DNA of 64,000 nt. Origin: an uncultured bacterium (lineage in GTDB: Bacteria; Babelota; Babeliae; Babelales; Babelaceae). The position numbers and the translations under genes are program-made. Positions 7,705 to 53,627 of this stretch are shown here, in pieces. Under the pieces are notes generated by a model, which saw only the letters and a list, made by a program, of their open reading frames with translations, was not told where the DNA came from and did not search any database. The stretch is taken from contig OY970209.1 of the NCBI GenBank assembly GCA_963713855.1, forward strand, positions 96,001-160,000, read 5' to 3'. Position 1 is the first letter of the stretch. Each line of letters begins with the position of its first letter.

Positions 7705-8529
7705 ATGTGGTTTGTAAAAAAAGGTCTAATCTTACTAATGTGTTGTACACTCTACCAAGTGTCCATAAATCAAACCTTAACGGAAAACAATAATCAGGAT
7801 GCTACTGCGCTGCAAGCATATTATAAAAACCTCTACGGATTTACAGAGCCTTCAGAAAAAACAAGAAAAGTATTCGACGAAATCATGGCTCAATCGCCTA
7901 TACAAATACCTCTTTTAGAATACCCTTCAAATGAAAATGAAAACCATACACGCTCCTTAGGGCCAAGTCAATTACGGGTCATAGTCATGCCCAATCTGAG
8001 CACCCTTGAAAAAGAGCATTTAGACTATGAGATTTTTGCTCTCTATCGCGAGCTTAATAAAATTATAAACTGGAACGGCATTAGCCTCGTTGGTGGTGTT
8101 TTGGGATTTTTTGGATCGTTACTCACATTACCTATAATTATAAACGCATTTCCCCATATTAGGCATGATATTAAGCACGCTTACGATTTAGCCCAACTTC
8201 ACATCATTTCACCCCGAGCTCTTTGGCGCATTGCATCGCCACTTCTACTTATCGGAGCCTATATTCTTTCAGTAACAGTGAGTAGTGCAATTTATCTGCA
8301 GTTACTCTTTATGCAACCGATCGAAACGGGACTCGATATTAACGCTTGCAAGCAACTTATTGCGGACGGCAAAACAGACATCCTTGAAAATGCGATTACT
8401 TACCTTAAAAATCATAAACCACATGAAAAAGAGCGAATCAGAAAATTGCAATTTTGTAAAGACAACGTAACTTTACCTATGTGGCAGTGGAAAAAAGGTA
8501 TGATGATGAATCATTCTGATGCTCTATAG
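7705..8529 (+). CDS. Membrane protein, degenerate M48-peptidase-like
   Basis: Signal peptide, two TM segments; YRELNKII, ETGLDINA and KPHEKERI sit where M48 motifs HELGH, E..AD and THP...ER would be. Confidence 0.6.
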   Translation: MWFVKKGLILLMCCTLYQVSINQTLTENNNQDATALQAYYKNLYGFTEPSEKTRKVFDEIMAQSPIQIPLLEYPSNENENHTRSLGPSQLRVIVMPNLSTLEKEHLDYEIFALYRELNKIINWNGISLVGGVLGFFGSLLTLPIIINAFPHIRHDIKHAYDLAQLHIISPRALWRIASPLLLIGAYILSVTVSSAIYLQLLFMQPIETGLDINACKQLIADGKTDILENAITYLKNHKPHEKERIRKLQFCKDNVTLPMWQWKKGMMMNHSDAL

Positions 8530-8739
8530 GTTTAACCGCGAAAACACCCTACCAGCCACCACCTCGGCCGCTCGTTCAGCATTTGCTCATTGTGCTCAGT
8601 GCTCGATAGAGTGCTTTTTCTCGAACATAATCCCTCTATTTCAAAGGAAATTCTCTAGAGCTGTATATCTATTTTGTTGCAAAATAGGCAATAAAATCGC
8701 TATACTTATTATGATATTACTTTAAATCAAGAGGTCTGT

Positions 8740-9315
8740 ATGCGTAAAATCAATCATTTTTATGCATTTTCGTTGATGTGTTTTTCTATTTTTAACGTTC
8801 TTTCAGGTCAAGTTAAAGCTAATGTACTTGAAGAAAAAGCTGAAAAGCTACGTGCAGATCTTAATATTGAGAAATTAGTAAAGGACACATTTTATGAAAG
8901 TCTTTTAAAGGATTTAGCAACAGAGGTTAATAGATTTGATCAAATCCATAAGGTGGTTCTAGAATTACCAGAACAAGACGATGACTCCGATACCATTGTA
9001 ACCGACTCAGATGAATTTGAAGAAGAATTACTCAAGCTACAAATTAAGATTTTTAAGCTTGCCATCGAAGTTCAGGATACTATTAATGATATTAACAATG
9101 CACTGGCGGAACGAATAAATGATGCTGTTGAAAAAATAAAGAAACAACCTTCAAAATACGTGACTCGAGATGACATACGTGCTCTTGTTCAACCGATATA
9201 TTTTCAAGTATTTTCTCTTGATATAGAAGGGCTTCATCATCTTAATGACAACTTAGAAGCAGCAATTAATGAGTATAATGATGTAGCTAAAAAATACCAT
9301 CGGGACGAATTATAA
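8740..9315 (+). CDS. Secreted acidic coiled-coil hypothetical protein
   Basis: Signal-like N-terminus, SD GAGG, heptad-rich acidic sequence. Confidence 0.7.
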   Translation: MRKINHFYAFSLMCFSIFNVLSGQVKANVLEEKAEKLRADLNIEKLVKDTFYESLLKDLATEVNRFDQIHKVVLELPEQDDDSDTIVTDSDEFEEELLKLQIKIFKLAIEVQDTINDINNALAERINDAVEKIKKQPSKYVTRDDIRALVQPIYFQVFSLDIEGLHHLNDNLEAAINEYNDVAKKYHRDEL

Positions 9316-9358
9316 AAGAAGTTTTATTTGTTCCAATGCATTGCTCTAGGCGTAAAGA

Positions 9359-10111
9359 TCAAGTTTTGATTGCGCGAAAACAAATGACCGAACTTTCTTT
9401 AGTCGGTCTTTCCAGAGTATAATCTCCGTAGATTTTTATCTCTTTAAAGCCGGCTTGCTCTAACAGTACTGCAAGCTCATAAATACCATACCAGCGCCAA
9501 GTGGCAGCAGCTTGTTCAACTTTGACAAGCTCATTGTGCTTATAGTGCTCAAATCGATACAACGCTTTTCTAAGCTGATGGACAGGATCATGCTTTAAGC
9601 TTTCATACCAGGTTATTGATAGCCCGGGCTCCAAAGGAATACCTTCTGCACGCACCTGCAAAACACCATCTTTGGTACGCTCGTGCCATGGCACAAAGAG
9701 TGATATAAGTACCTGTCCACCTGGAAGAAGGTGCTCGTAAAAGCGCTTTAAAGCCTCCACTGCTTGATCATACTCTGATATAAGCATAAAAGATGCTGAG
9801 GGTATATAGATCGTCGCGTACTGCTTTTTAATTGCTAAAGTTTGCATGTACTGCTCATATAAAACGGGCTTAAAGCCGCTTTTTTGAGCTTTCTCGCGAC
9901 ATAATAAAAGCATTTCTTTTGAAGCATCAACACCTTCAACGTCATAACCCCCTTTTAAAAAGTGCACCAAAAACTGACCCGTTCCACAAGCAAGCTCTAA
10001 TGAAGTACCCGGTACTACATCAAAAAAAGAGCGATAAAAAGAAAGCTCCTCGCTTGATGGCTCGAACAAAGTGTCATACAGTTTTGCAAAAATACCCTCG
10101 TAAAGTGTCAC
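9359..10111 (-). CDS. Class I SAM-dependent methyltransferase
   Basis: LELACGTG motif I, GVDASKEML, HLLPGG. Confidence 0.9.
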   Translation of the reverse strand: MTLYEGIFAKLYDTLFEPSSEELSFYRSFFDVVPGTSLELACGTGQFLVHFLKGGYDVEGVDASKEMLLLCREKAQKSGFKPVLYEQYMQTLAIKKQYATIYIPSASFMLISEYDQAVEALKRFYEHLLPGGQVLISLFVPWHERTKDGVLQVRAEGIPLEPGLSITWYESLKHDPVHQLRKALYRFEHYKHNELVKVEQAAATWRWYGIYELAVLLEQAGFKEIKIYGDYTLERPTKESSVICFRAIKT

Positions 10112-11328
10112 GTTGTCAACCTTCCTAAAGCTTTAATAAGCTTAGAAACCTCTTCATGAGTTGAATAGAGATAAAAGCTTGCGCGAACGGAGGCCACAAT
10201 ACCACGTTTTCTATGAACTTCTTGAGCGCACTGCATACCGGCACGCACAGCAATACCCTCGGTATCCAAAAATGCCGCAACATCATGGGGATGTATTCCA
10301 TCCAGCGTAAAACTGACAAGATGGTCTTCATTCGCATCACTTAGCGGACCGAGAATCTGGGCACGAGGGAGCTTTAAGAGGGCCTCTTTTAACTCATTAC
10401 ATAAAGCACTTTCATGCTTTTTCAACCAAGCAAAATCGATTTGTTCTAAATATTCTAACGCTTTTCCATAAGCAATCACTTGAGCAGCACTTTGAGTGCC
10501 CGCTTCGTAAAGTCGGGGAAAGGGCTCGAACTGCATGCCTTGCTCTGACCACGAAGCAAGCATACCTCCACCAACTTGATGAGGATAGAGCTCGCTATGA
10601 AGTTTTGAAGACACATATAATATCCCCACGCCCTGTGGACCGAGCATCTTATGAGCAGAAAAGACCATAAAATCACACTTAAGGTCTGCAACATCAATCC
10701 TCTTATGGGGAACAAGTTGTGCAGCGTCGATAAGAACACGTGCTCCAACAGCGTGGACCATTTTAGTGACCTGCGTTAAAAATGAAACAGTGTCTTGGGC
10801 AATTGCTCCCAAGACATTAGAATATCCGGTTACGGCCAGAAGCTTCGTTTTAGGAGTTAGCAGTTTAGAAAGTTCAGAAAGAGCCAAATGACCTTCGTCA
10901 TTAAAGTCCCACCAACGTATAACGAGTTTTTTTTCTTGGGATAACAAAAGCCAAGGAAAGCTATTAGCTGAATGCTCAAGGCGTGAAAGTATGATCTCGT
11001 CACCTTCGCGCAACGCATGGGCAGCCCAACCAGAAGCTACAATGTTTATACTTTCTGTAGCGCTTTTGGTAAAAACAATTTCTTCGGGAAGCGCATTAAT
11101 AAACCGAGCGCATCTTTGACGAACATCTTCATACCGCTTTGTCGCTTTTTCTGCCAAAAAATACATACTTCGTTGCGTCGAAGCGTATTCATAGGCATAA
11201 AAATCATAAAGCTCGCGAATCACGCTTTCAGGTTTTTGGCTCGTTGTGGCGCTATCAAGATAAGCACAATGGGGATGCTTTTTAAAAAAAGGAAAGTCAC
11301 TGCGATAGGGATTCATACGAAAAACCAT
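10108..11328 (-). CDS. sufS: Cysteine desulfurase, SufS type
   Basis: YLDSATTSQKP, EHSAN, DAAQ, SAHKMLGP (PLP lysine), RAGMQCA (catalytic Cys). Confidence 0.93.
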   Translation of the reverse strand: MVFRMNPYRSDFPFFKKHPHCAYLDSATTSQKPESVIRELYDFYAYEYASTQRSMYFLAEKATKRYEDVRQRCARFINALPEEIVFTKSATESINIVASGWAAHALREGDEIILSRLEHSANSFPWLLLSQEKKLVIRWWDFNDEGHLALSELSKLLTPKTKLLAVTGYSNVLGAIAQDTVSFLTQVTKMVHAVGARVLIDAAQLVPHKRIDVADLKCDFMVFSAHKMLGPQGVGILYVSSKLHSELYPHQVGGGMLASWSEQGMQFEPFPRLYEAGTQSAAQVIAYGKALEYLEQIDFAWLKKHESALCNELKEALLKLPRAQILGPLSDANEDHLVSFTLDGIHPHDVAAFLDTEGIAVRAGMQCAQEVHRKRGIVASVRASFYLYSTHEEVSKLIKALGRLTT

Positions 11329-43856: not shown

Positions 43857-43889
43857 AAAGAGGCTCATTTTAAAATGAGCCTCTTTTTT
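43857..43889 (+). terminator. Perfect 30-bp palindrome with T run, probable terminator
   Basis: AAAGAGGCTCATTTT/AAAATGAGCCTCTTT followed by T's. Confidence 0.6.
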
Positions 43890-44617
43890 CTTGTTTAATT
43901 TCTTTTTTTCTTAAAGTGGAATATCTAAAACAGGTCTTTCTGTCAAAATACGGATGTATCGTTTCAAATTGTAGATGTGCAAGGGCCGCTTTTATAAGAG
44001 GCGGAGTTTGCACGCCGTTGATATACTTTTCCAGATCGCTCATAAGCTCAGCAATTCGCGCTGGCGGAGGTAGAATAAGCCTACCAACACGTACCGCTCG
44101 CTTTCTATAGAAGCCGGGATCAGCTTCATCCTCGATGCCACCAAGAAGTGCCCTGTGCGCGTCCAATATGACTTGTGAATTGATGGATATATGTTCTTGT
44201 TGGATGCTATTAAGAGCACTCGTAAGAGCAGAAATATAATTCATAACAACTGACTACCTTTATCAGGCGTCGTAGATGATAGTCGCTACAAATATCAGAT
44301 ATAGTAGCGTAGATCTTTTCGATAGCAGACGAAAATACTGCTTCTTTAATAACGAATGCTTGTGCAAAATGATCTACGTTAGGCAAACGCTTTACCAGTT
44401 CATCAAGCCTTGTTACGCATATCAGAGCTTCATCATGAAGCGGCGATGGCTTAAAATCGAGCTCATCATAGGAAGGAAGATCGTATGGCACAAAGTGCTT
44501 TATCTCATTAATCACTTCATAAAAACCAGCCGTAGTACCTTGGCCCTCACCCTTACATAAAATAAGCAAACTTAAGACAACAAGCATCGTTCTTGTAATC
44601 ACAGCATATACTTTCAA
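43870..44617 (-). pseudogene. Fic-family (Fic_N plus Fic) protein, frameshifted and truncated
   Basis: KEAVFSSAIE, PG.YR and AHLQFETIHPYFD, after which GNGR is lost; two frames. Confidence 0.8.
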
Positions 44618-46287: not shown

Positions 46288-47712
46288 ATGATGGATACGA
46301 TTAAGCAATCCGTACCTAAAGGAGTGTTAGGAGCAAACAAGCAGCGCACGTATTCAGAGATTAATGATTTTTTGGATAAGCGCTGGAATGTACCGCAGGA
46401 CAAGCATTGCCTTGAGCGCATGAAAGCTTTAGATGCTGCGCTTGGGCTTCCTTCGCAAAAAATACCTACCATTCTTGTTGCTGGAACCAATGGTAAAAGT
46501 TTGACCATTCAGTTCACCACTCAGCTTCTAAAAACTGAAGGGTTGAAAGTTGGTTCATTTTATGCACCGCATGTATTGACCTACAACGAGCGTTTTAGCA
46601 TTAACAATGAGACTATTTCTAATAAAAGCTTTACCGAAATAGCGAATGAGGTTCTTAATGCCGCTGAGGGCCTTGAGCTCAAAGCTGGTGCTCAAGAACT
46701 TTTAACGATGATAGCTCTTTGTTATTTTGTGCAGCAGAAGGTTGAGGCGGCCGTTCTTGAGGTTGACAAGCTTACAAGCTTTAACCCTGCGGCAATTTGT
46801 ACGCCAAAAATTGTTACAATTACACGTATCACACCAACAAATACCAGTATTGATGATGCAAAGCTTGAAGAAATAACGCGTGAAATTATGAGCCTTGTTA
46901 AAAAAGGTACTCATGTCATCGCTGGTGATCAGAGCAAAAACCATCTACACATCATGCAGGAATCGACGGAAAAGCTCCATGCTCATTGGGCTATGCCGAT
47001 ACGTAAACTTGCTGCACTCATTTATCCATTTGAGCAATTGCACGGCCGCTGTGCTGCTTTAGCTGAGCGAACTGCTCAGATCTTTGTTGAAAAAATACTT
47101 GCCCGTAATGCCACCCTTGTTATGGACAGCCTTCTTACCAAGCAAAAGGGCCAGCGCGGAAGGCCAACAATCGAGGAAAAGCGTCGCGCAGAACTGTACC
47201 CTAAAAAGACTATCGATCAATTCTGGAAAGAGACAACTAATGAGTTGCCCTGCCGTTTCCAGCTTCTTGATAAAGAAAAACCAAGTATACTTCTTGATAA
47301 TGCGAGAAACCTAGACGCATTCAAAAATCTTCTTCTTGGTATTCGCTTGCTTCATTACCAAAGACCGCTTAAAGGCTTGAGCATCGTTGTTGCTGCTGCG
47401 CACAATACGCTGCACAACGAAGAGTTTCTCAAACTCCTTCGCTATTTCTTCAAAAAGACTTCAGGTCAACTTTTCATTTGCCCTATTGAGGATGCTCTAC
47501 CTGGACTTCAAGAAGAGACCACTTGGAATGTTGAGCAAGTGACCAATGATGTTAAAAGCATGAAGATTAAAGCTCGAGCATGTAAGAATTTTGAAGAAGC
47601 GCTCGATCTTGCTAAAAAGTCTGTTGATGAGCGTAGTGGATTGGTTGTTGTTACCGGTTCACAATCGATTATCTACCAGTACTGGAAGCAAAAAGGCATC
47701 AAAAAGCTATAA
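46288..47712 (+). CDS. Divergent FolC/Mur-ligase-like protein
   Basis: VAGTNGK, PHV..YNERF, VLEV, PCRFQ, LLDNARN, VVTGS; several catalytic motifs altered. Confidence 0.75.
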   Translation: MMDTIKQSVPKGVLGANKQRTYSEINDFLDKRWNVPQDKHCLERMKALDAALGLPSQKIPTILVAGTNGKSLTIQFTTQLLKTEGLKVGSFYAPHVLTYNERFSINNETISNKSFTEIANEVLNAAEGLELKAGAQELLTMIALCYFVQQKVEAAVLEVDKLTSFNPAAICTPKIVTITRITPTNTSIDDAKLEEITREIMSLVKKGTHVIAGDQSKNHLHIMQESTEKLHAHWAMPIRKLAALIYPFEQLHGRCAALAERTAQIFVEKILARNATLVMDSLLTKQKGQRGRPTIEEKRRAELYPKKTIDQFWKETTNELPCRFQLLDKEKPSILLDNARNLDAFKNLLLGIRLLHYQRPLKGLSIVVAAAHNTLHNEEFLKLLRYFFKKTSGQLFICPIEDALPGLQEETTWNVEQVTNDVKSMKIKARACKNFEEALDLAKKSVDERSGLVVVTGSQSIIYQYWKQKGIKKL

Positions 47713-47910: not shown

Positions 47911-48009
47911 TGTAGTTTGCTTTTTTTAAAGCCACTATTTTAACAGTTGCATGCTTACGACCTTCCTCTTATACTGTTAAAAAGGCCTTTACCAAAGGAC
48001 ATAACTACT

Positions 48010-48744
48010 GTGCAATCGATGGAACTTTTTGAGCAACATACCTGGCGACCCTTTGAGGCTATGGGTTTTACGCATTCTTTTTGGTCTCTCAACAGAGAAA
48101 CGATCCTTTACACATGGGTTGTCTTAGGCATACTTACAGTATTTGCCCTTTTTGTGCGCTATTTTATACGCAGGCCTGATACGATTCCTGGAACTATTGC
48201 GGAGACGTATGTACGTTCGTTCATGCAAATGATTACGCAGACGCTTGAGTATTTTGAGTATCGTTACTGTGCTTTTATCGGATCACTTTTTACGTTCATT
48301 TTCGTATGTAACGTGCTCATTCTTTTTCCCTACATGGAAGAGCCGACCAAGGATATTAACACGACGCTGGCACTTGCGATTATTTCATTTTTATACGTAC
48401 AGAAAGAGTCTATTCGTGCTCATGGTATTGGTGGCTATATTAAGGAATTTTTTAAGCCCTTTTTCATTTTTTTCCCACTAGAAGTACTTGGGCGGCTAGC
48501 GACTGTTGTATCACTTTCATTTCGCCTTTTTGGAAACATTTTTGGCGGCTCCATTATTAGCACCATGTGGAATTACGCTATATCAGGCTCGATTTTAGCT
48601 CAGATTGCTGGTACTTTGCTTGGTATAAACATTGTAATCATGCTTTTTTTTGGTATTTTTGAAGGCTTTATCCAGGCCTTTGTATTTTCTATTTTAAGCT
48701 TAACGTACCTTTCTATGGCAGTTTCTGAGGAGCAACATGAATGA
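48010..48744 (+). CDS. atpB: F0F1 ATP synthase subunit a
   Basis: PTKDINTT, SLSFRLFGN (essential Arg), IQAFVF..L...Y; start GTG 48010 or ATG 48019. Confidence 0.93.
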   Translation: MQSMELFEQHTWRPFEAMGFTHSFWSLNRETILYTWVVLGILTVFALFVRYFIRRPDTIPGTIAETYVRSFMQMITQTLEYFEYRYCAFIGSLFTFIFVCNVLILFPYMEEPTKDINTTLALAIISFLYVQKESIRAHGIGGYIKEFFKPFFIFFPLEVLGRLATVVSLSFRLFGNIFGGSIISTMWNYAISGSILAQIAGTLLGINIVIMLFFGIFEGFIQAFVFSILSLTYLSMAVSEEQHE

Positions 48745-49675
48745 CCTAGCCCACTCATTCACAGTCGCGTCATTGGTTGTTCTGCCTGCCTTAGGTGTAG
48801 GCATTGGCCAAGGTCGCGTGAACAAGGCTGCTGTTGAAGCGATTAACGAGCAGCCTGCTGTTGAAAGCGCTATTAGGCGATTAGCACTTATTTCACTCAC
48901 CTTAAGTGAAACGGCTGTACTTTTAGGCGTCGTTATGGCGAGTCTGATTCTTCGTGGCCCTGTTTTAAAAGCACCGCTTAATCTTTCTTACATCGGAATC
49001 ATCTTTGGCTGCGCTATTCCTGGCTTTATGGTCGGTCTTGTATCTGCGGGTCCTGGTATTGCTGCTCTAAAAGCTGCAGCGCGTCAGCCGCTTTTCATTG
49101 CCAAAATTACTCAACTTTTACTGATTAGCCAGGCCGTTATTCAAACTTCGACCATTTTTGGCTTTATTATAGCGCTCGTTTTACGAAGCCAGGCTTCGAC
49201 AGGAAACTCATCTGATGGCATACGCCTATGTATGAGTGGGGTATGCTTTGGTATTGCGGTTATCGGACCACTTTTGGGCCTAGGCTTTTTTACGAAAGCG
49301 GTGTGCACTGTTGCAGGCCTTAACAGAGCTATTTACCCGCGCCTTAGAACCTTTGCTTTTATAAGCCAAGCGCTTATAGAAGCACCGGTCGTTTTTTCGC
49401 TTATCATCGCACTTGTTTTAGCTATAAGCGGATCTAAAAGCCCCTCTATTGCAAGAAACGCAGCTTTTATAGCGGCAGCATTTATTATGGGACTTACAAC
49501 GCTTGCAACAGGCCTTAATTCAAGCCGCACTGCAACAACCACCGCCAAACTTCTTTCTAAATACCCTGATCAGTACCCTACCCTATCGAAAATGAGCATG
49601 GTCACCCAAACCTTCATCGACACTTCAGCAATTTACGGGCTTCTTGATTGCCTTATCATACTCTGGGCAAGCTAA
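48737..49675 (+). CDS. atpE: ATP synthase subunit c, four fused hairpins
   Basis: Directly after atpB; GVGIGQG, EQP and RQP loops; four ~75-aa c repeats. Confidence 0.85.
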   Translation: MNDLAHSFTVASLVVLPALGVGIGQGRVNKAAVEAINEQPAVESAIRRLALISLTLSETAVLLGVVMASLILRGPVLKAPLNLSYIGIIFGCAIPGFMVGLVSAGPGIAALKAAARQPLFIAKITQLLLISQAVIQTSTIFGFIIALVLRSQASTGNSSDGIRLCMSGVCFGIAVIGPLLGLGFFTKAVCTVAGLNRAIYPRLRTFAFISQALIEAPVVFSLIIALVLAISGSKSPSIARNAAFIAAAFIMGLTTLATGLNSSRTATTTAKLLSKYPDQYPTLSKMSMVTQTFIDTSAIYGLLDCLIILWAS

Positions 49676-49753
49676 AAATCGGACATTAATCATTGATTTT
49701 TATCTATAATTTATTCTAATATAAAATTATAAGTTTTATTAAACGGAGAATGT

Positions 49754-49975
49754 ATGAAAAAGCACGTACTATGCTTGACGCTCTTTCTTTTCATGTCTTC
49801 TGGAGTGCAAGCACTTCATGAGGCATCTTACACTAAATCAAACTCATGGGCCACGGCCATTGAAAAATTACTGTCTCCACTCTTTCAAGAATTAATGCCC
49901 GCAGATGAAGTTACAAGTTGGATCTCATGGGCTAGCGGATTAGTCAAAAAAGTCGCATCAACAATAAGCGAATAA
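49754..49975 (+). CDS. Small secreted protein
   Basis: SD GGAG; signal peptide ending VQA. Confidence 0.6.
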   Translation: MKKHVLCLTLFLFMSSGVQALHEASYTKSNSWATAIEKLLSPLFQELMPADEVTSWISWASGLVKKVASTISE

Positions 49976-50067
49976 AAGCTGCCCTTTGTTATTTTTAAAA
50001 AACGGTAAATCACACCAAATTGAACTGTCACCTAAATATTCCCAAGCAGATGTGCCAAAGCAAAATT

Positions 50068-51348
50068 TTAACTATTAATCAACTGAGCATTCTCTCCCGT
50101 GCGCCGATTGTGCAGGTATCTCTTGAGAATGAACCCGGAAACCACTGCCGCAGCAACAAAAACAACGGCAGCACCGGCTCCCACACTAACACCTATAACA
50201 CAATCCATATTACAACTCTTGTTACTGTTATTTCCATTATTGCTCTTGCCACAGCCGAATACAGTGACATCATTTGAATTCTCATTAGCAGTAGCAATAT
50301 ATAAGCTGCCTGGTGAAAAGGCGATTGAATTCGCGCCGCTCGACTCAGATGGTAAATTAGTCACTTCACTTTTGCTCAATCTACCTTCATTGTCTACGTC
50401 AAACAGTGCTATTGCGCTAGAAGAACCACCAATAACAATAGCCAGGTACATACCATTTGGTGAAAATGCCGCAGCAGTGAAATAGCCGTAAAAGGAAGGT
50501 AATGCGTATGAGGTGCCCTTACTCAGGGAGCCATCTGGCTCCACACTAAATATGGTTACGTCAGCTGAAAGAATATTAGCAGTAACAAGATACGAGCCGT
50601 TGGGTGAAAAAGATACGGAATTGGGAGTTTTAGAGCCGGAGGGTAATGCATATGATTTTCCTGTGCTCAGTTTGCCGTCTGGGCCGACACCAAAAATCGT
50701 CACATCGCGCGAATTCTGATTAGCGATAGCTAAAAGGGCACTATTTGGTGAAAATGCTATCGACGTAGGAGTAGCTGTCCCCGATGGTAATGCATATGAT
50801 ATTCCACCCGTTAGAATACCGCCAATTCCTACAGTAAACACGCTAATATTAGTTGAACCGATATTAGCAGTAGCAAGATATGAGCCATTGGGCGAAAATG
50901 CTAGGGCAATAGGTTGATAAGAACCAGAAGGCAGCGAATACGAAGCAGCAACTTTCGAGACACTCCCATCTCCTACAATATTAAACACTGTTACATCATT
51001 TGATTCACTATTGGCAGTAGCGAAATACCGGCTATCGGGCGCAAATGCTGCTGCACAAGGATTTTTAGAGCCCGACGGTAAAGGAAGCGAAATAGGTGTA
51101 CTTAGCACTCCAGACTCTTCGACGTTAAACACTGTTACATTATTTGAAACAGGAGGTGGAAAACTTCCTTTGTAAATAGTTGCTGTAACAAGGTATGAGC
51201 CATCGGGTGAATATACTACTGATGAAGGTGCTGAAGACCCGACTGGTAACGCATAGGAAGTGCCGCCATTATTTAGGGAGCAATCAGCATTGAGTCTTCC
51301 GTTTGTTGCCATTACTAGTAGCGTAGCAAGTAAAGTTGTGTTGTTCAT
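50068..51348 (-). CDS. 7-bladed beta-propeller (lactonase-like repeats) surface protein with C-terminal TM anchor
   Basis: Signal peptide, seven ~46-aa SYALPSGS..P..AFSP.G.YLATAN repeats, Asn-rich linker, TM helix, basic tail. Confidence 0.85.
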   Translation of the reverse strand: MNNTTLLATLLVMATNGRLNADCSLNNGGTSYALPVGSSAPSSVVYSPDGSYLVTATIYKGSFPPPVSNNVTVFNVEESGVLSTPISLPLPSGSKNPCAAAFAPDSRYFATANSESNDVTVFNIVGDGSVSKVAASYSLPSGSYQPIALAFSPNGSYLATANIGSTNISVFTVGIGGILTGGISYALPSGTATPTSIAFSPNSALLAIANQNSRDVTIFGVGPDGKLSTGKSYALPSGSKTPNSVSFSPNGSYLVTANILSADVTIFSVEPDGSLSKGTSYALPSFYGYFTAAAFSPNGMYLAIVIGGSSSAIALFDVDNEGRLSKSEVTNLPSESSGANSIAFSPGSLYIATANENSNDVTVFGCGKSNNGNNSNKSCNMDCVIGVSVGAGAAVVFVAAAVVSGFILKRYLHNRRTGENAQLINS

Positions 51349-51976
51349 CCTGTTCTTTCCCAGTAGATTACTTGACAGTTTTCACGGCACTATATAAGCA
51401 CTGTTGACTCTAATGGGGTAAAATTTTAATGTCAACAATCGCATACATCTAGATTGGGTATCACAAGAAAAAGAAATATGCCGCTATGGGTGAAGAATCT
51501 TCAGCTATGAAGCAAGTACCTGATAGCTAATGAAAGTAATTAGCCTTTAGACGCCGAACTCATACGCACATGACCTAAAATTTGATGAATGATTTTTCTG
51601 GCAATGTTTCAAATATAGTTCCTGCCTGTGCACCATATAACCCTTGATGAGCCCCAGCTATCGTTTGACCCAGGTAGTTAGCTCGTTGGTGGGTAGTCGA
51701 TGAGCGTGTTTTGAATGAACTTGAGGCTATGAAGGTGCAAAACATCTTCTAAGACCGTTTACTTAACGCTATTGTTTTTAGAAAGTTTAGCGAGATTTTG
51801 AATTTGTTAAAGGAGAAAACTAGTATAGAAAATATAAGCAGTCTGAAGTATTCCATTACTATTACAAAATTACAATGCTGAAATTTTAACCACTTTCACT
51901 ATTTTAGTACCAAATAAATAGTCGAAACATAAGTTCGAATAAAATGCGCGCACGCCTTGCGGCTCAGAATAAGCGA

Positions 51977-52699
51977 CTATGTCATACTGCGATCTTTCAA
52001 CACATAGAGTTTATGAACATCAATATATTTGATTACCTTGGAGTCAACAAACTCATAAACACTTAAACCGCGCGATATCATCGAGCGAACGGCTGAAGAG
52101 CTTATGGTGTTTTCAAAAGGCGAAGGTACGACAAACAAAGCATTTTGGTGCTTTTTTAATATTTCGTTATTGTTAATAAGCGCAGTAAGAGGAATACCAA
52201 AGCGAGGTATTACGAGTATCCCATGGTTATCATCCATCAGCGTTTCTTGATCCTCTAATGACCATAGCCCTGGGGTATTAAACGAGCTTAAAAGATCAGC
52301 CCCGCATACGAGAAAAACTCGGACGTCTCGTTTGTAACAGTCATTTAAACCTTTGCGTAAGTGCTCAATAACTGAAACTGTGGTCTGATACTTTTCTTGC
52401 TCAGCTTCCCAAGTATCAAGCGCTATCCAAGAAGAACGTTCTAGTGCTAATTGCGCCATAGCGATTCTATCAGCAGATGGAGCAAGCCCTTCTTTTTTGT
52501 AGGCGTCTGATACTGGAGATATAAAGCCACCTACAACGTATATATCGGGACGCACGCGACTCAAATGATTTTTACCACTTTCAAGCATTTCGAGGTGAAA
52601 AAGGGTAATGGGCGAAAAAGAGCCACAAGCTATAAGAACGGCGGGTTTTCGCGCATCCCATTCTAAGATTGGCGCCAATTTTGAGCAATCAATGGACAT
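51977..52699 (-). CDS. Nicotinamide/nicotinate mononucleotide adenylyltransferase, eukaryotic NMNAT type
   Basis: ACGSFSPITLFH, SPVSDAYKKEGL, DTWE, CGADLL.SF..P.LW, ISSS.VR, YI..HKLY. Confidence 0.9.
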   Translation of the reverse strand: MSIDCSKLAPILEWDARKPAVLIACGSFSPITLFHLEMLESGKNHLSRVRPDIYVVGGFISPVSDAYKKEGLAPSADRIAMAQLALERSSWIALDTWEAEQEKYQTTVSVIEHLRKGLNDCYKRDVRVFLVCGADLLSSFNTPGLWSLEDQETLMDDNHGILVIPRFGIPLTALINNNEILKKHQNALFVVPSPFENTISSSAVRSMISRGLSVYEFVDSKVIKYIDVHKLYVLKDRSMT

Positions 52700-52721
52700 A
52701 GTCTTTATAAATCTTTAGCTT

Positions 52722-53627
52722 TTAATAACCATATACCGACTTGCGATCAGCATCATTCATAAAGGTGACGTGCTTTTTAGCTTGTTCTAGAAGATCTGCT
52801 TCGTACTCAGAAAGCGCAACCTTAAAGCGTTCAGCACGAATAGTTGCTTCGATTTTTTTATAACGCTTTTCATCAGTCTCTTTATGACCTGTTTTTAAAG
52901 GTATTAAACGATCTTCGGTTTTTTCTTTAAGTTTAGTGACTTCAAAGCCACCAGCTGCGGGCTCGATAAAAACGATGTTACCGATGGCCTCATTTTTTAT
53001 AAACCCTTTATCTTTAGGCAAATCTCGAGCTTTAATCACAAACGGCTCACTCCACGCAATCGCTGATTTAAGCGTTTTATTTTTGATCGCGCTTTCAAAT
53101 TCAGTAGCGGGTAGCGTACTTGGCACAAAAGCGTTCAAGAGCGTAAACGTGGCTTCCTCGCGGTCTCCGTGCTTATCCCAATAAGCATCAACATCGCCCT
53201 CTTTTAGCGTTGGCATTTTATTTCTTAAGCGATAAGATTGTGCCTGCTCGATTTCTTGTTGACGCTTTAGCTGCTCTTTTCCTTCCTTGACGGTGTATCC
53301 GACAGCTTTAAAAATAGCCTCAATTTGCTCAAAACCACAATTATTTATCTTTTGCAGTTCTTTAAGAAATTTATCAACCTCTTCATCAGTCACCTTGATT
53401 GCAAGCGTGCGTGCATCAAAAGCCTTGAGCTGCTCAAGAACCATGTCGCGCAAAGTACGTTGTTCACCATTAAGGTTGGGGCGAATATCAAGGGTGGTAA
53501 TAATAACCTTTTCTTGCTGAGGACCAAAAATGATAGCTCGCGTCTGATTGAAAATGATATCTTCGCCAAATGCGCTGACTGACCACAACAATAAGCAGCC
53601 TAAAAACAGTAAAACTTTTGTGTGCAT
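52722..53627 (-). CDS. SurA-like periplasmic chaperone
   Basis: Signal peptide; SurA N-domain pattern VTDEEVD; degenerate parvulin region. Confidence 0.6.
   Translation of the reverse strand: MHTKVLLFLGCLLLWSVSAFGEDIIFNQTRAIIFGPQQEKVIITTLDIRPNLNGEQRTLRDMVLEQLKAFDARTLAIKVTDEEVDKFLKELQKINNCGFEQIEAIFKAVGYTVKEGKEQLKRQQEIEQAQSYRLRNKMPTLKEGDVDAYWDKHGDREEATFTLLNAFVPSTLPATEFESAIKNKTLKSAIAWSEPFVIKARDLPKDKGFIKNEAIGNIVFIEPAAGGFEVTKLKEKTEDRLIPLKTGHKETDEKRYKKIEATIRAERFKVALSEYEADLLEQAKKHVTFMNDADRKSVYGY

Follow-up and report, generated by a model that had tools for sequence, protein, structure and literature searches.

The window analysed here is a stretch of 64,000 nucleotides, corresponding to positions 96001-160000 of the single 1,521,901-bp contig (41.4% GC) of a Dependentiae genome (G000). 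This affiliation was checked with PheT, whose named relatives are MAGs of 'Candidatus Babeliaceae' and 'Candidatus Babeliales'. On its minus strand, at 51977-52699, it carries a gene for a predicted eukaryote-type nicotinamide mononucleotide (NMN) adenylyltransferase (NMNAT), an intact open reading frame (ORF) of 240 aa with an ATG start. A preliminary description, made from the DNA letters, had proposed that this is a host-derived gene that took the place of bacterial NadD. As it described, the gene starts 22 nt past the TAA stop of a SurA-like gene (52722-53627, minus), the last member of a co-oriented pheT-lspA-comF-like-PPIase (peptidyl-prolyl isomerase)-SurA-like string that we confirmed with Pfam. 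Ahead of the NMNAT ATG, the frame stays open for only five codons (open frame 245 aa), which leaves no room for a signal peptide, the lack of which had also been noted.

All of the eukaryote-type motifs quoted in that description are present in the 240-aa product. The N-terminal nucleotidyltransferase motif, GSFSPITLFH (residues 26-35; 52595-52624, minus), has the GxFxPxTxxH form seen in eukaryotes, not the GxFDPxHxGH form of NadD, and aligns with GSFNPITNMH of human NMNAT1. In an alignment of 51 sequences, its residues G26, P30 and H35 are invariant and T32 is nearly so. Next comes SPVSDAYKKEGL (residues 61-72; 52484-52519, minus), a stretch conserved in eukaryotic NMNATs, which pairs with SPVGDAYKKKGL of human NMNAT1 and in which S61, P62, Y67, K69 and L72 are invariant; this segment presumably binds the mononucleotide (NMN), as in the NMNAT1 structures. 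DTWE stands at residues 95-98, and CGADLLSSFNTPGLW (residues 132-146; 52262-52306, minus), with its LW pair at residues 145-146, is followed by a 13-residue spacer with a one-residue insertion and a WS.EDQ signature. The C-terminal nucleotide-binding motif, ISSSAVR (residues 199-205; 52085-52105, minus), is of the ISSTxxR type, with S200 and R205 invariant and S201 nearly so, and YIDVHKLY occupies residues 225-232. The catalytic roles of the single motif residues are presumably those described for the NMNAT1 structures.

Profile searches separated the protein from the bacterial NadD families. It is a single-domain protein that matched PF01467 of Pfam at 54.2 bits (cut-off 21), an assignment at the superfamily level only. 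In NCBIfam, it passed TIGR00482 at 132.3 bits (cut-off 112.45) over profile positions 1-194 of 194, whereas it scored far under the cut-offs of the NadD equivalogs NF000839 (52.6 against 187 bits), NF000840 (50.2 against 150), NF005519 (56.1 against 315) and NF000841 (37.3 against 197). The NadR/NadM-type model NF006479 gave 14.3 bits against a cut-off of 164. A phmmer search of the PDB matched 11 distinct sequences, comprising seven eukaryotic NMNATs at E values from 1.7e-44 (human NMNAT1, 1kku, the best) to 1.9e-37 and four bacterial NadD proteins at 7.7e-5 to 2.3e-3.

The predicted fold points the same way. An AlphaFold2 model computed with the 51-sequence alignment as input reached a mean pLDDT (predicted local distance difference test) of 95.5 and a pTM (predicted TM-score) of 0.92. 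Foldseek ranked eukaryotic NMNATs at all of positions 1-16 (TMq 0.83-0.88, identity 34-39%, root-mean-square deviation 1.4-2.4 A), and NadD structures appeared from rank 19 on (TMq 0.62-0.70, identity 17-22%). Judged by its sequence and its modelled fold, the window protein belongs with the eukaryotic NMNATs rather than with NadD or NadM, and this character, as read from the sequence, is far beyond chance. The comparison of eukaryotic NMNAT with NadD profiles, which the preliminary description had put forward as a check, thus came out in its favour, and nesting within NadD or NadM, which it had named as the contrary outcome, does not apply to the window protein.

Eukaryote-type NMNAT is rare in the phylum. 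A protein search found it in two of 41 relatives, namely G000 itself and G008 (51% identity), which belongs to another genus of the same family. A profile built from 11 eukaryote-type sequences gave full-length matches in the same two of 261 phylum genomes, together with one partial match of 27 bits. When 185,579 species genomes were scanned for two exact peptide patterns, the only return was a 410-kb contig of G008. Among the 1.84 billion representative proteins of a library, 197 matched at E <= 1e-30, the best non-self match at 46% identity. The organism-named relatives were all eukaryotes: fungi, animals, plants, Naegleria, a dictyostelid and Trimastix, with Heterolobosea, Amoebozoa and Metamonada included.

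Other candidate carriers and sources were tried and rejected. The best metagenome loci of JGI (L017 and L018, 43%) lie on eukaryotic contigs with UBR box, leishmanolysin, Myb and PH domains, and so are not bacterial carriers. A scan of IMG/VR for a giant-virus source yielded 16 pattern matches and no relative, the only match in a phage collection was Bacillus phage G at 28.7%, and the plasmid candidates came to seven records at <=38% identity, mostly partial.

NadD itself is scarce in the phylum. No TIGR00482 match at all was obtained in 247 of the 261 Dependentiae genomes; 14 had one, and it exceeded the cut-off in two only (G000 and G008). The other 12 carry weak, divergent NadD-like genes that score 26-53 bits. 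In G000, the NMNAT gene is the sole TIGR00482 and the sole PF01467 gene, and the canonical nadD that the preliminary description had suggested looking for was found nowhere else in the genome. The proposal of a NadD replacement is not supported by this comparison: with no match in 247 genomes and only weak NadD-like genes in 12, NMNAT is a gain in a lineage without NAD (nicotinamide adenine dinucleotide) synthesis, not a swap.

The NMNAT gene is an ordinary resident of this bacterial genome, with ameliorated composition. Its GC content (41.8%) and its GC content at third codon positions (GC3, 36.3%) lie within 0.05 standard deviations of the means of 1,048 long ORFs (z ~0), and its synonymous-codon score stands at the 42nd percentile of the 1,048. 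The adjoining SurA-N-like periplasmic chaperone gene (52722-53627, minus; PF09312), the last conserved gene of the pheT-lspA-comF-PPIase-SurA string, served as a synteny anchor: its orthologues, with gene order kept, show 44% identity in G001, a genome of the same genus, and 36% in G008. Between its stop and the NMNAT start lies a spacer of 22 nt (52700-52721, minus; 23% GC) in which no terminator-like site was found, and NMNAT is for that reason probably co-transcribed with the upstream string.

A closer relative allowed the rate of divergence to be compared. The NMNAT relative P0002 (75% identity) and the PheT relative P0381 (74%) are both listed with a longest contig of 74,383 bp, and NMNAT is probably still linked to pheT in the relative that carries P0002. 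From these two values, NMNAT diverges like a housekeeping gene.

Both flanks of the NMNAT stretch are syntenic with G001 and G008. In G001, the ATP-synthase a and c genes converge with the SurA-like-PPIase-comF-lspA-pheT string, and the junction (L103) holds nothing between the c gene (8402-9346, plus) and the SurA-like gene (9296-10156, minus), whose 3' ends overlap. A stretch of ~3 kb of the window (49676-52721) is therefore absent from the same junction in G001; it contains a 73-aa ORF with a signal peptide (49754-49975, plus), a beta-propeller gene and the NMNAT gene. At the corresponding junction of G008, a Fic-domain ORF of 210 aa takes the place of this stretch.

These features also speak to the objection that eukaryotic host DNA was misassembled or mis-binned into a bacterial genome. 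The best named relatives are indeed eukaryotic. However, the gene has no introns, its GC, GC3 and codon use are typical of the genome, and 22 nt separate it from a bacterial gene of the same orientation; the bacterial sequence to either side of it, within one 1.52-Mb contig, is syntenic with that of relatives; and homologues occur in two other bacterial assemblies, G008 (410-kb contig) and that of P0002 (74 kb, probably with pheT). An assembly chimera is thus very unlikely, and we give an artefact of this kind practically no weight.

The neighbourhood has further features. The beta-propeller gene (lactonase/WD40-like repeats; 50068-51348, minus; PF10282, E 8.3e-25) has a C-terminal hydrophobic tail and its own promoter-like site, TTGACA-17-TAGAGT at 51435-51407, and is no part of the NAD function. 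Its family is hugely expanded: G001 has 188 matches and G008 has 28, and many of these lie in proteins of 750-1,500 aa. The gap of 628 bp between this gene and NMNAT (51349-51976) showed no ORF >56 aa and no Rfam match. On the other side of the ~3-kb stretch, the plus strand at 47947-49675 encodes ATP-synthase a and then a protein of 312 aa with two PF00137 (c-subunit) stretches, far above the normal ~80 aa; this protein is conserved in G001 (314 aa) and corresponds to two ORFs in G008. Upstream of ATP-synthase a, at 46288-47712 (plus), lies a 474-aa protein without Pfam match, whose identity to its counterparts in G001 and G008 is 76-82%. Further along, on the minus strand, a Fic_N ORF (44210-44617) overlaps a Fic ORF (43870-44244), an arrangement that resembles one frameshifted Fic gene.

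Outside the window, the genome encodes a predicted partner of NMNAT. The NMNAT step is common to every NAD route, and NMNAT and NAD kinase are usually regarded as indispensable. To our knowledge, NAD kinase is the only route to NADP (NAD phosphate), and the enzyme is near-universal elsewhere. PF01513 (NAD kinase), which was matched in 14 of 14 control genomes, was found in two of 29 relatives and in two of the 261 phylum genomes, in each case G000 and G008, and a query with the G000 NadK protein matched the same two of 261. NadK and eukaryote-type NMNAT thus co-occur in exactly the same two genomes. The single nadK of G000 (G000:C1:1259352-1260308) lies ~1.1 Mb from NMNAT, and in G008 (locus L003) nadK (346-1365) ends 15 nt before NMNAT (1381-2169). 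The best PDB matches of NadK were 4hao (E 1.1e-48), 2an1 and 7mh7, and its Atlas clusters are mainly from Pseudomonadota; by its sequence, NadK is of the bacterial type.

The two genes have diverged to a similar extent. Between G000 and G008, the identities are 46% for NadK, 50-51% for NMNAT and 47% for PheT. Given this similar divergence together with the co-occurrence, NMNAT and NadK behave as one long-resident module of mixed ancestry.

The surroundings of nadK differ between the two genomes. The nadK loci of G000 and G008 showed no common neighbourhood, and the G000 locus used as a DNA query had no match in G001 and one unrelated match of 386 bp in G008. Directly upstream of nadK in G000, on the same strand (G000:C1:1260410-1263045), are four tandem ORFs of ~195 aa with signal-like N-termini, possibly for small secreted proteins that are paralogues of one another. 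In G008, accessory genes surround the nadK-NMNAT pair, and an IS630-type DDE_3 transposase is encoded two genes upstream of it (L105 6495-7541, 10741-11943). The pair is followed there by a hydrolase resembling PAF-acetylhydrolase, a DUF2608 protein and a small P-loop (AAA_18-like) kinase without a homologue in G000.

To place the NMNATs relative to each other, we used neighbour-joining (NJ) trees from Kimura protein distances with 200 bootstraps, on 53 sequences and 225 columns and on 83 sequences and 219 columns. The bacterial-side set comprises G000, P0002, G008, P0003, P0005 and P0245, with P0003 and P0005 as putative bacterial members. A feature of the alignment unites most of them. The spacer from the Trp to the next strand has 13 residues in 10 and 12 residues in 290 of 316 pattern-matched sequences (380 examined). 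The 13-residue sequences include the window protein, P0002, G008, P0003 and P0005, and all five carry WS.[EA]DQ. Because of this common insertion and signature, we read them as one bacterial-side clade. P0140 and P0144 have the DQ motif but 12-residue eukaryotic spacing and an ER ending, and were left out of it.

On this sequence distribution, transfer from a eukaryote to a bacterium is most likely, being the most economical reading, because full-length copies occur in two of the 261 phylum genomes, the scan of species genomes returned a single prokaryote contig, that of G008, and the named relatives are all eukaryotic. The placement of NMNAT within an indel relative to G001 of the same genus and its patchiness in the phylum likewise fit horizontal gain. 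The preliminary description had specified a transfer from host to symbiont. Its eukaryotic part holds as the most economical reading; the host as donor is not supported, the NJ trees giving no supported sister group.

The direction could in principle have been the reverse. This type of NMNAT would then be native to bacteria such as Dependentiae, with eukaryotes having received it or both having inherited it, and the window gene would be vertical. The bacterial-side sequences do branch close to the root of the NJ tree when the Dependentiae NadD-like proteins serve as outgroup, and not inside a named eukaryotic group; the G000-G008 identity of NMNAT (50%), close to that of PheT (47%), is compatible with long vertical descent; and in the part of a 2026 preprint about how eukaryotic metabolism originated that we drew on (10.64898/2026.05.08.723234), Dependentiae and Chlamydiota are often sisters of eukaryotic clades with the direction open and NMNAT unmentioned. 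The basal position has no support, however, and long-branch attraction would produce the same placement with so distant an outgroup. Full-length copies in only two of 261 genomes, a single prokaryote contig from 185,579 species genomes, named relatives that are all eukaryotic over a span from fungi to Trimastix, and the indel relative to G001 are all difficult to reconcile with an old bacterial gene, and we regard this direction as quite improbable.

The number of gains is a separate question. One old gain followed by losses could be replaced by two or more independent acquisitions, or by a nadK-NMNAT cassette that spread from bacterium to bacterium within Babeliales. Spread of this kind would account for the lack of common neighbours between the G000 and G008 loci, for the transposase two genes from the G008 pair amid accessory genes and for the absence of both NMNAT and nadK from G001; moreover, a eukaryote-type NMNAT with a bacterial-type NadK is chimeric, which implies that the pair was assembled in a bacterium. 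The insertion and WS.[EA]DQ common to the window protein, P0002, G008, P0003 and P0005, together with reciprocal best identities, nevertheless point to one clade, and the G000-G008 divergence of both genes is in line with that of housekeeping genes. We therefore consider repeated acquisition or cassette spread a possible account, but the less probable one. It bears on the history only and leaves the proposed function unchanged.

What the enzyme would do can be read from the rest of the gene set. NadE (PF02540) was not found in G000, although the control matched 14 of 14 genomes, and neither NAPRTase/NAMPT nor Sir2 was found in this genome. With NadE not found, nicotinic acid adenine dinucleotide (NaAD) would be a dead end, and on the predicted gene set NMN is the sensible substrate of the window NMNAT. 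The use of nicotinic acid mononucleotide (NaMN), which had been proposed alongside NMN, is not borne out for the same reason, as NaAD would lead nowhere. The likely source of NMN is the host. Recycling of NMN from an NAD-dependent DNA ligase was considered and rejected, as the NAD-dependent ligase (PF01653) was not found in any of the 13 genomes searched (G000 and 12 relatives) and an ATP-dependent ligase of ~590 aa was present in all 13, with one or two further shorter copies in some. The replacement of the NAD-dependent by an ATP-dependent ligase is known for Babela massiliensis, according to the part of PMC4378268 that we drew on, and is here extended to 13 genomes.

In the proposed scheme, NMNAT would convert NMN and ATP to NAD+, an activity predicted from its sequence, and NadK, presumably acting in series, would convert NAD+ and ATP to NADP+. 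ATP would be supplied through tandem carriers of the ATP/ADP-translocase family, of which G000 has three to four TLC/NTT genes outside the window (G000:C1:915360-919525), and NMN would come from the host. The other Dependentiae presumably obtain pyridine nucleotides from their eukaryotic host.

Taken together, we think it probable that the window gene encodes a catalytically intact cytosolic NMNAT of eukaryotic ancestry, gained long ago by a lineage of Babeliales, and that this enzyme and a bacterial-type NadK form a route from NMN through NAD to NADP. In this account, the enzymatic activity, NMN as substrate, the host as its source, the direction of transfer and the operation of the two genes in series are inferred.

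Several points weigh against this account. The hydrophobic leaders on NadK of G000 and G008 and on the NMNATs of G008, P0003 and P0245 fit a cytosolic route poorly. PnuC was not found in G000, in which no NMN uptake system was identified, and the specificities of the NTT carriers (ATP, NAD, NADP, perhaps NMN) are unreadable from sequence. The marker-based completeness of G000 is 91%, so that a gene not found is no proof of its absence, and the strict two-pattern scan of species genomes could miss divergent bacterial copies. Bootstrap support in the NJ trees falls from 200/200 for the window protein with P0002 to 77/200 when G008 is added and to 27/200 for the six bacterial-side sequences, and the trees place no supported eukaryotic group as their sister. 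Finally, NMNAT occupies different loci in G000 and G008, which is compatible both with a single origin that was followed by relocation and many losses and with transfers inside the order.

The leaders raise the question of where the enzymes act. Those of the three bacterial-side NMNATs have Kyte-Doolittle maxima of 2.5-3.1, and those of NadK in G000 and G008 are hydrophobic, signal-like stretches of ~28-40 residues that precede the conserved domain. P0002, like the window NMNAT, has no leader. A crude hydrophobicity rule flags 21-44% of the G000 ORFs, and the start codons are unverified, so that a leader is weak evidence either way. Among the divergent NadD-like proteins of Dependentiae, all seven N-termini that were read (G040, G010, G167, G166, G168, G198 and G052, at loci L006, L007, L016, L109, L110, L111 and L112, respectively) have leaders resembling signal peptides. 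Their sequences suggest exported enzymes akin to NMN/NaMN adenylyltransferases. Several of the leaders have AxA-type ends, and the protein of G010 is fused to a longer C-terminal part, giving 407 aa in total.

An exported or host-directed NMNAT, together with NadK, could therefore be envisaged, acting in the periplasm, the vacuole or the host and either building NAD(P) for import or manipulating host NAD pools. The leaders on the three NMNATs, on both NadK proteins and on all seven NadD-like proteins would fit such a role, and the window encodes parts of a type II secretion or type IV pilus system (GspE-like, GspH-like, prepilin peptidase and pilin). Yet the window NMNAT has neither a leader nor room for one within its five upstream in-frame codons, and P0002 has none either; hydrophobic N-termini are common in G000, as the crude rule shows; the start codons of the relatives are unverified, and P0003 has an internal Met just before its conserved core. 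We judge export of the window enzyme unlikely. A broader version would be that those Dependentiae which make pyridine nucleotides assemble NAD(P) from host NMN and host ATP outside the cytoplasm, in the periplasm or the host compartment, with the leader-bearing NadD-like proteins, NMNATs and NadK proteins as exported or membrane-anchored enzymes, and take it up by NTT-type carriers, the window NMNAT being a derived cytosolic version; read from the same sequences, this has a small chance of being correct, and if true, extracytoplasmic assembly of NAD(P) would be a cofactor strategy specific to energy parasites.

If instead the cytosolic route holds, one small lineage would have rebuilt the last two steps of NAD(P) synthesis from mixed parts, NMNAT being of the eukaryotic and NadK of the bacterial type. 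This would be a natural experiment on how some cofactor autonomy returns to an obligate energy parasite, and it offers a clean and testable case of a eukaryote-type core metabolic enzyme in a bacterium. It also points to what the host may supply, NMN for the G000 lineage versus NAD and NADP for its relatives, and it draws attention to an unusual group of NAD enzymes in Dependentiae that may be exported.

Among the papers listed by full-text searches, none was found to describe NMNAT in Dependentiae, an enzyme that the supplementary tables of PMC4776705 and PMC4378268 could list, or to describe an NMNAT of eukaryotic type in bacteria that live inside cells. In the parts of these sources that we drew on, Yeoh et al. 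(PMC4776705) describe no complete cofactor pathway in any TM6 genome, and PMC4378268 does not contain the term "nicotin", its single "adenylyltransferase" being a sulfate adenylyltransferase. Gene exchange between Dependentiae and eukaryotes has been noted for UPRT, NDK and genes of the ubiquitin system, with no occurrence of NMNAT in the corresponding part of the preprint (10.64898/2026.05.08.723234).

The closest known counterparts of the window protein are the eukaryotic NMNATs, including human NMNAT1 (1kku/1kqn) and NMNAT3 (1nup), the Arabidopsis (9rpk) and Chaetomium (9iw1) enzymes and the yeast Nma1/Nma2 type, with which it aligns over nearly its full length at 34-39% identity. They have in common GxFxPxTxxH, SPVxDAYxKxGL, DTWE, CGADLL..F..P.LW and ISSxxxR. 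The window protein differs in lacking the internal loop of human NMNAT1 (residues ~111-135), where the alignment splits in two, and is therefore a minimal form of 240 aa. It also differs in being encoded by a bacterial gene, probably the last of a bacterial gene string, in having no N- or C-terminal targeting extensions, and in carrying the insertion and the WS.EDQ signature, which it has in common only with a handful of bacterial-side relatives.

The bacterial NadD enzymes (such as those of E. coli, 1k4k, and Enterococcus, 8aih) resemble the window protein in PF01467, in TIGR00482 and in adenylyl transfer to a pyridine mononucleotide. They differ from it in the GxFDPxHxGH motif and in working with NadE, which was not found in G000. 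The NadD-like proteins of Dependentiae come from the same phylum and superfamily and are the only other NadD/NMNAT-like genes there (12 of 261 genomes), but they have an HxGH motif, reach only 26-53 bits against TIGR00482, carry leaders and in no case occur with NadK.

Finally, the eukaryote-like genes of amoeba-associated bacteria (Legionella, Chlamydiota and Dependentiae), as treated in the parts of 10.64898/2026.05.08.723234 and PMC4378268 that we drew on, represent the same phenomenon, an obligate associate of protists with a eukaryotic-type gene. No new enzyme family or mechanism is revealed here, and the domestication of a eukaryote-type gene by a protist-associated bacterium is a known phenomenon. 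Unlike those eukaryote-like genes, the window gene encodes an enzyme of core cofactor metabolism whose partner is a NadK of bacterial type, and what the case adds is a two-gene module that two of 261 genomes possess in a phylum otherwise without either step.

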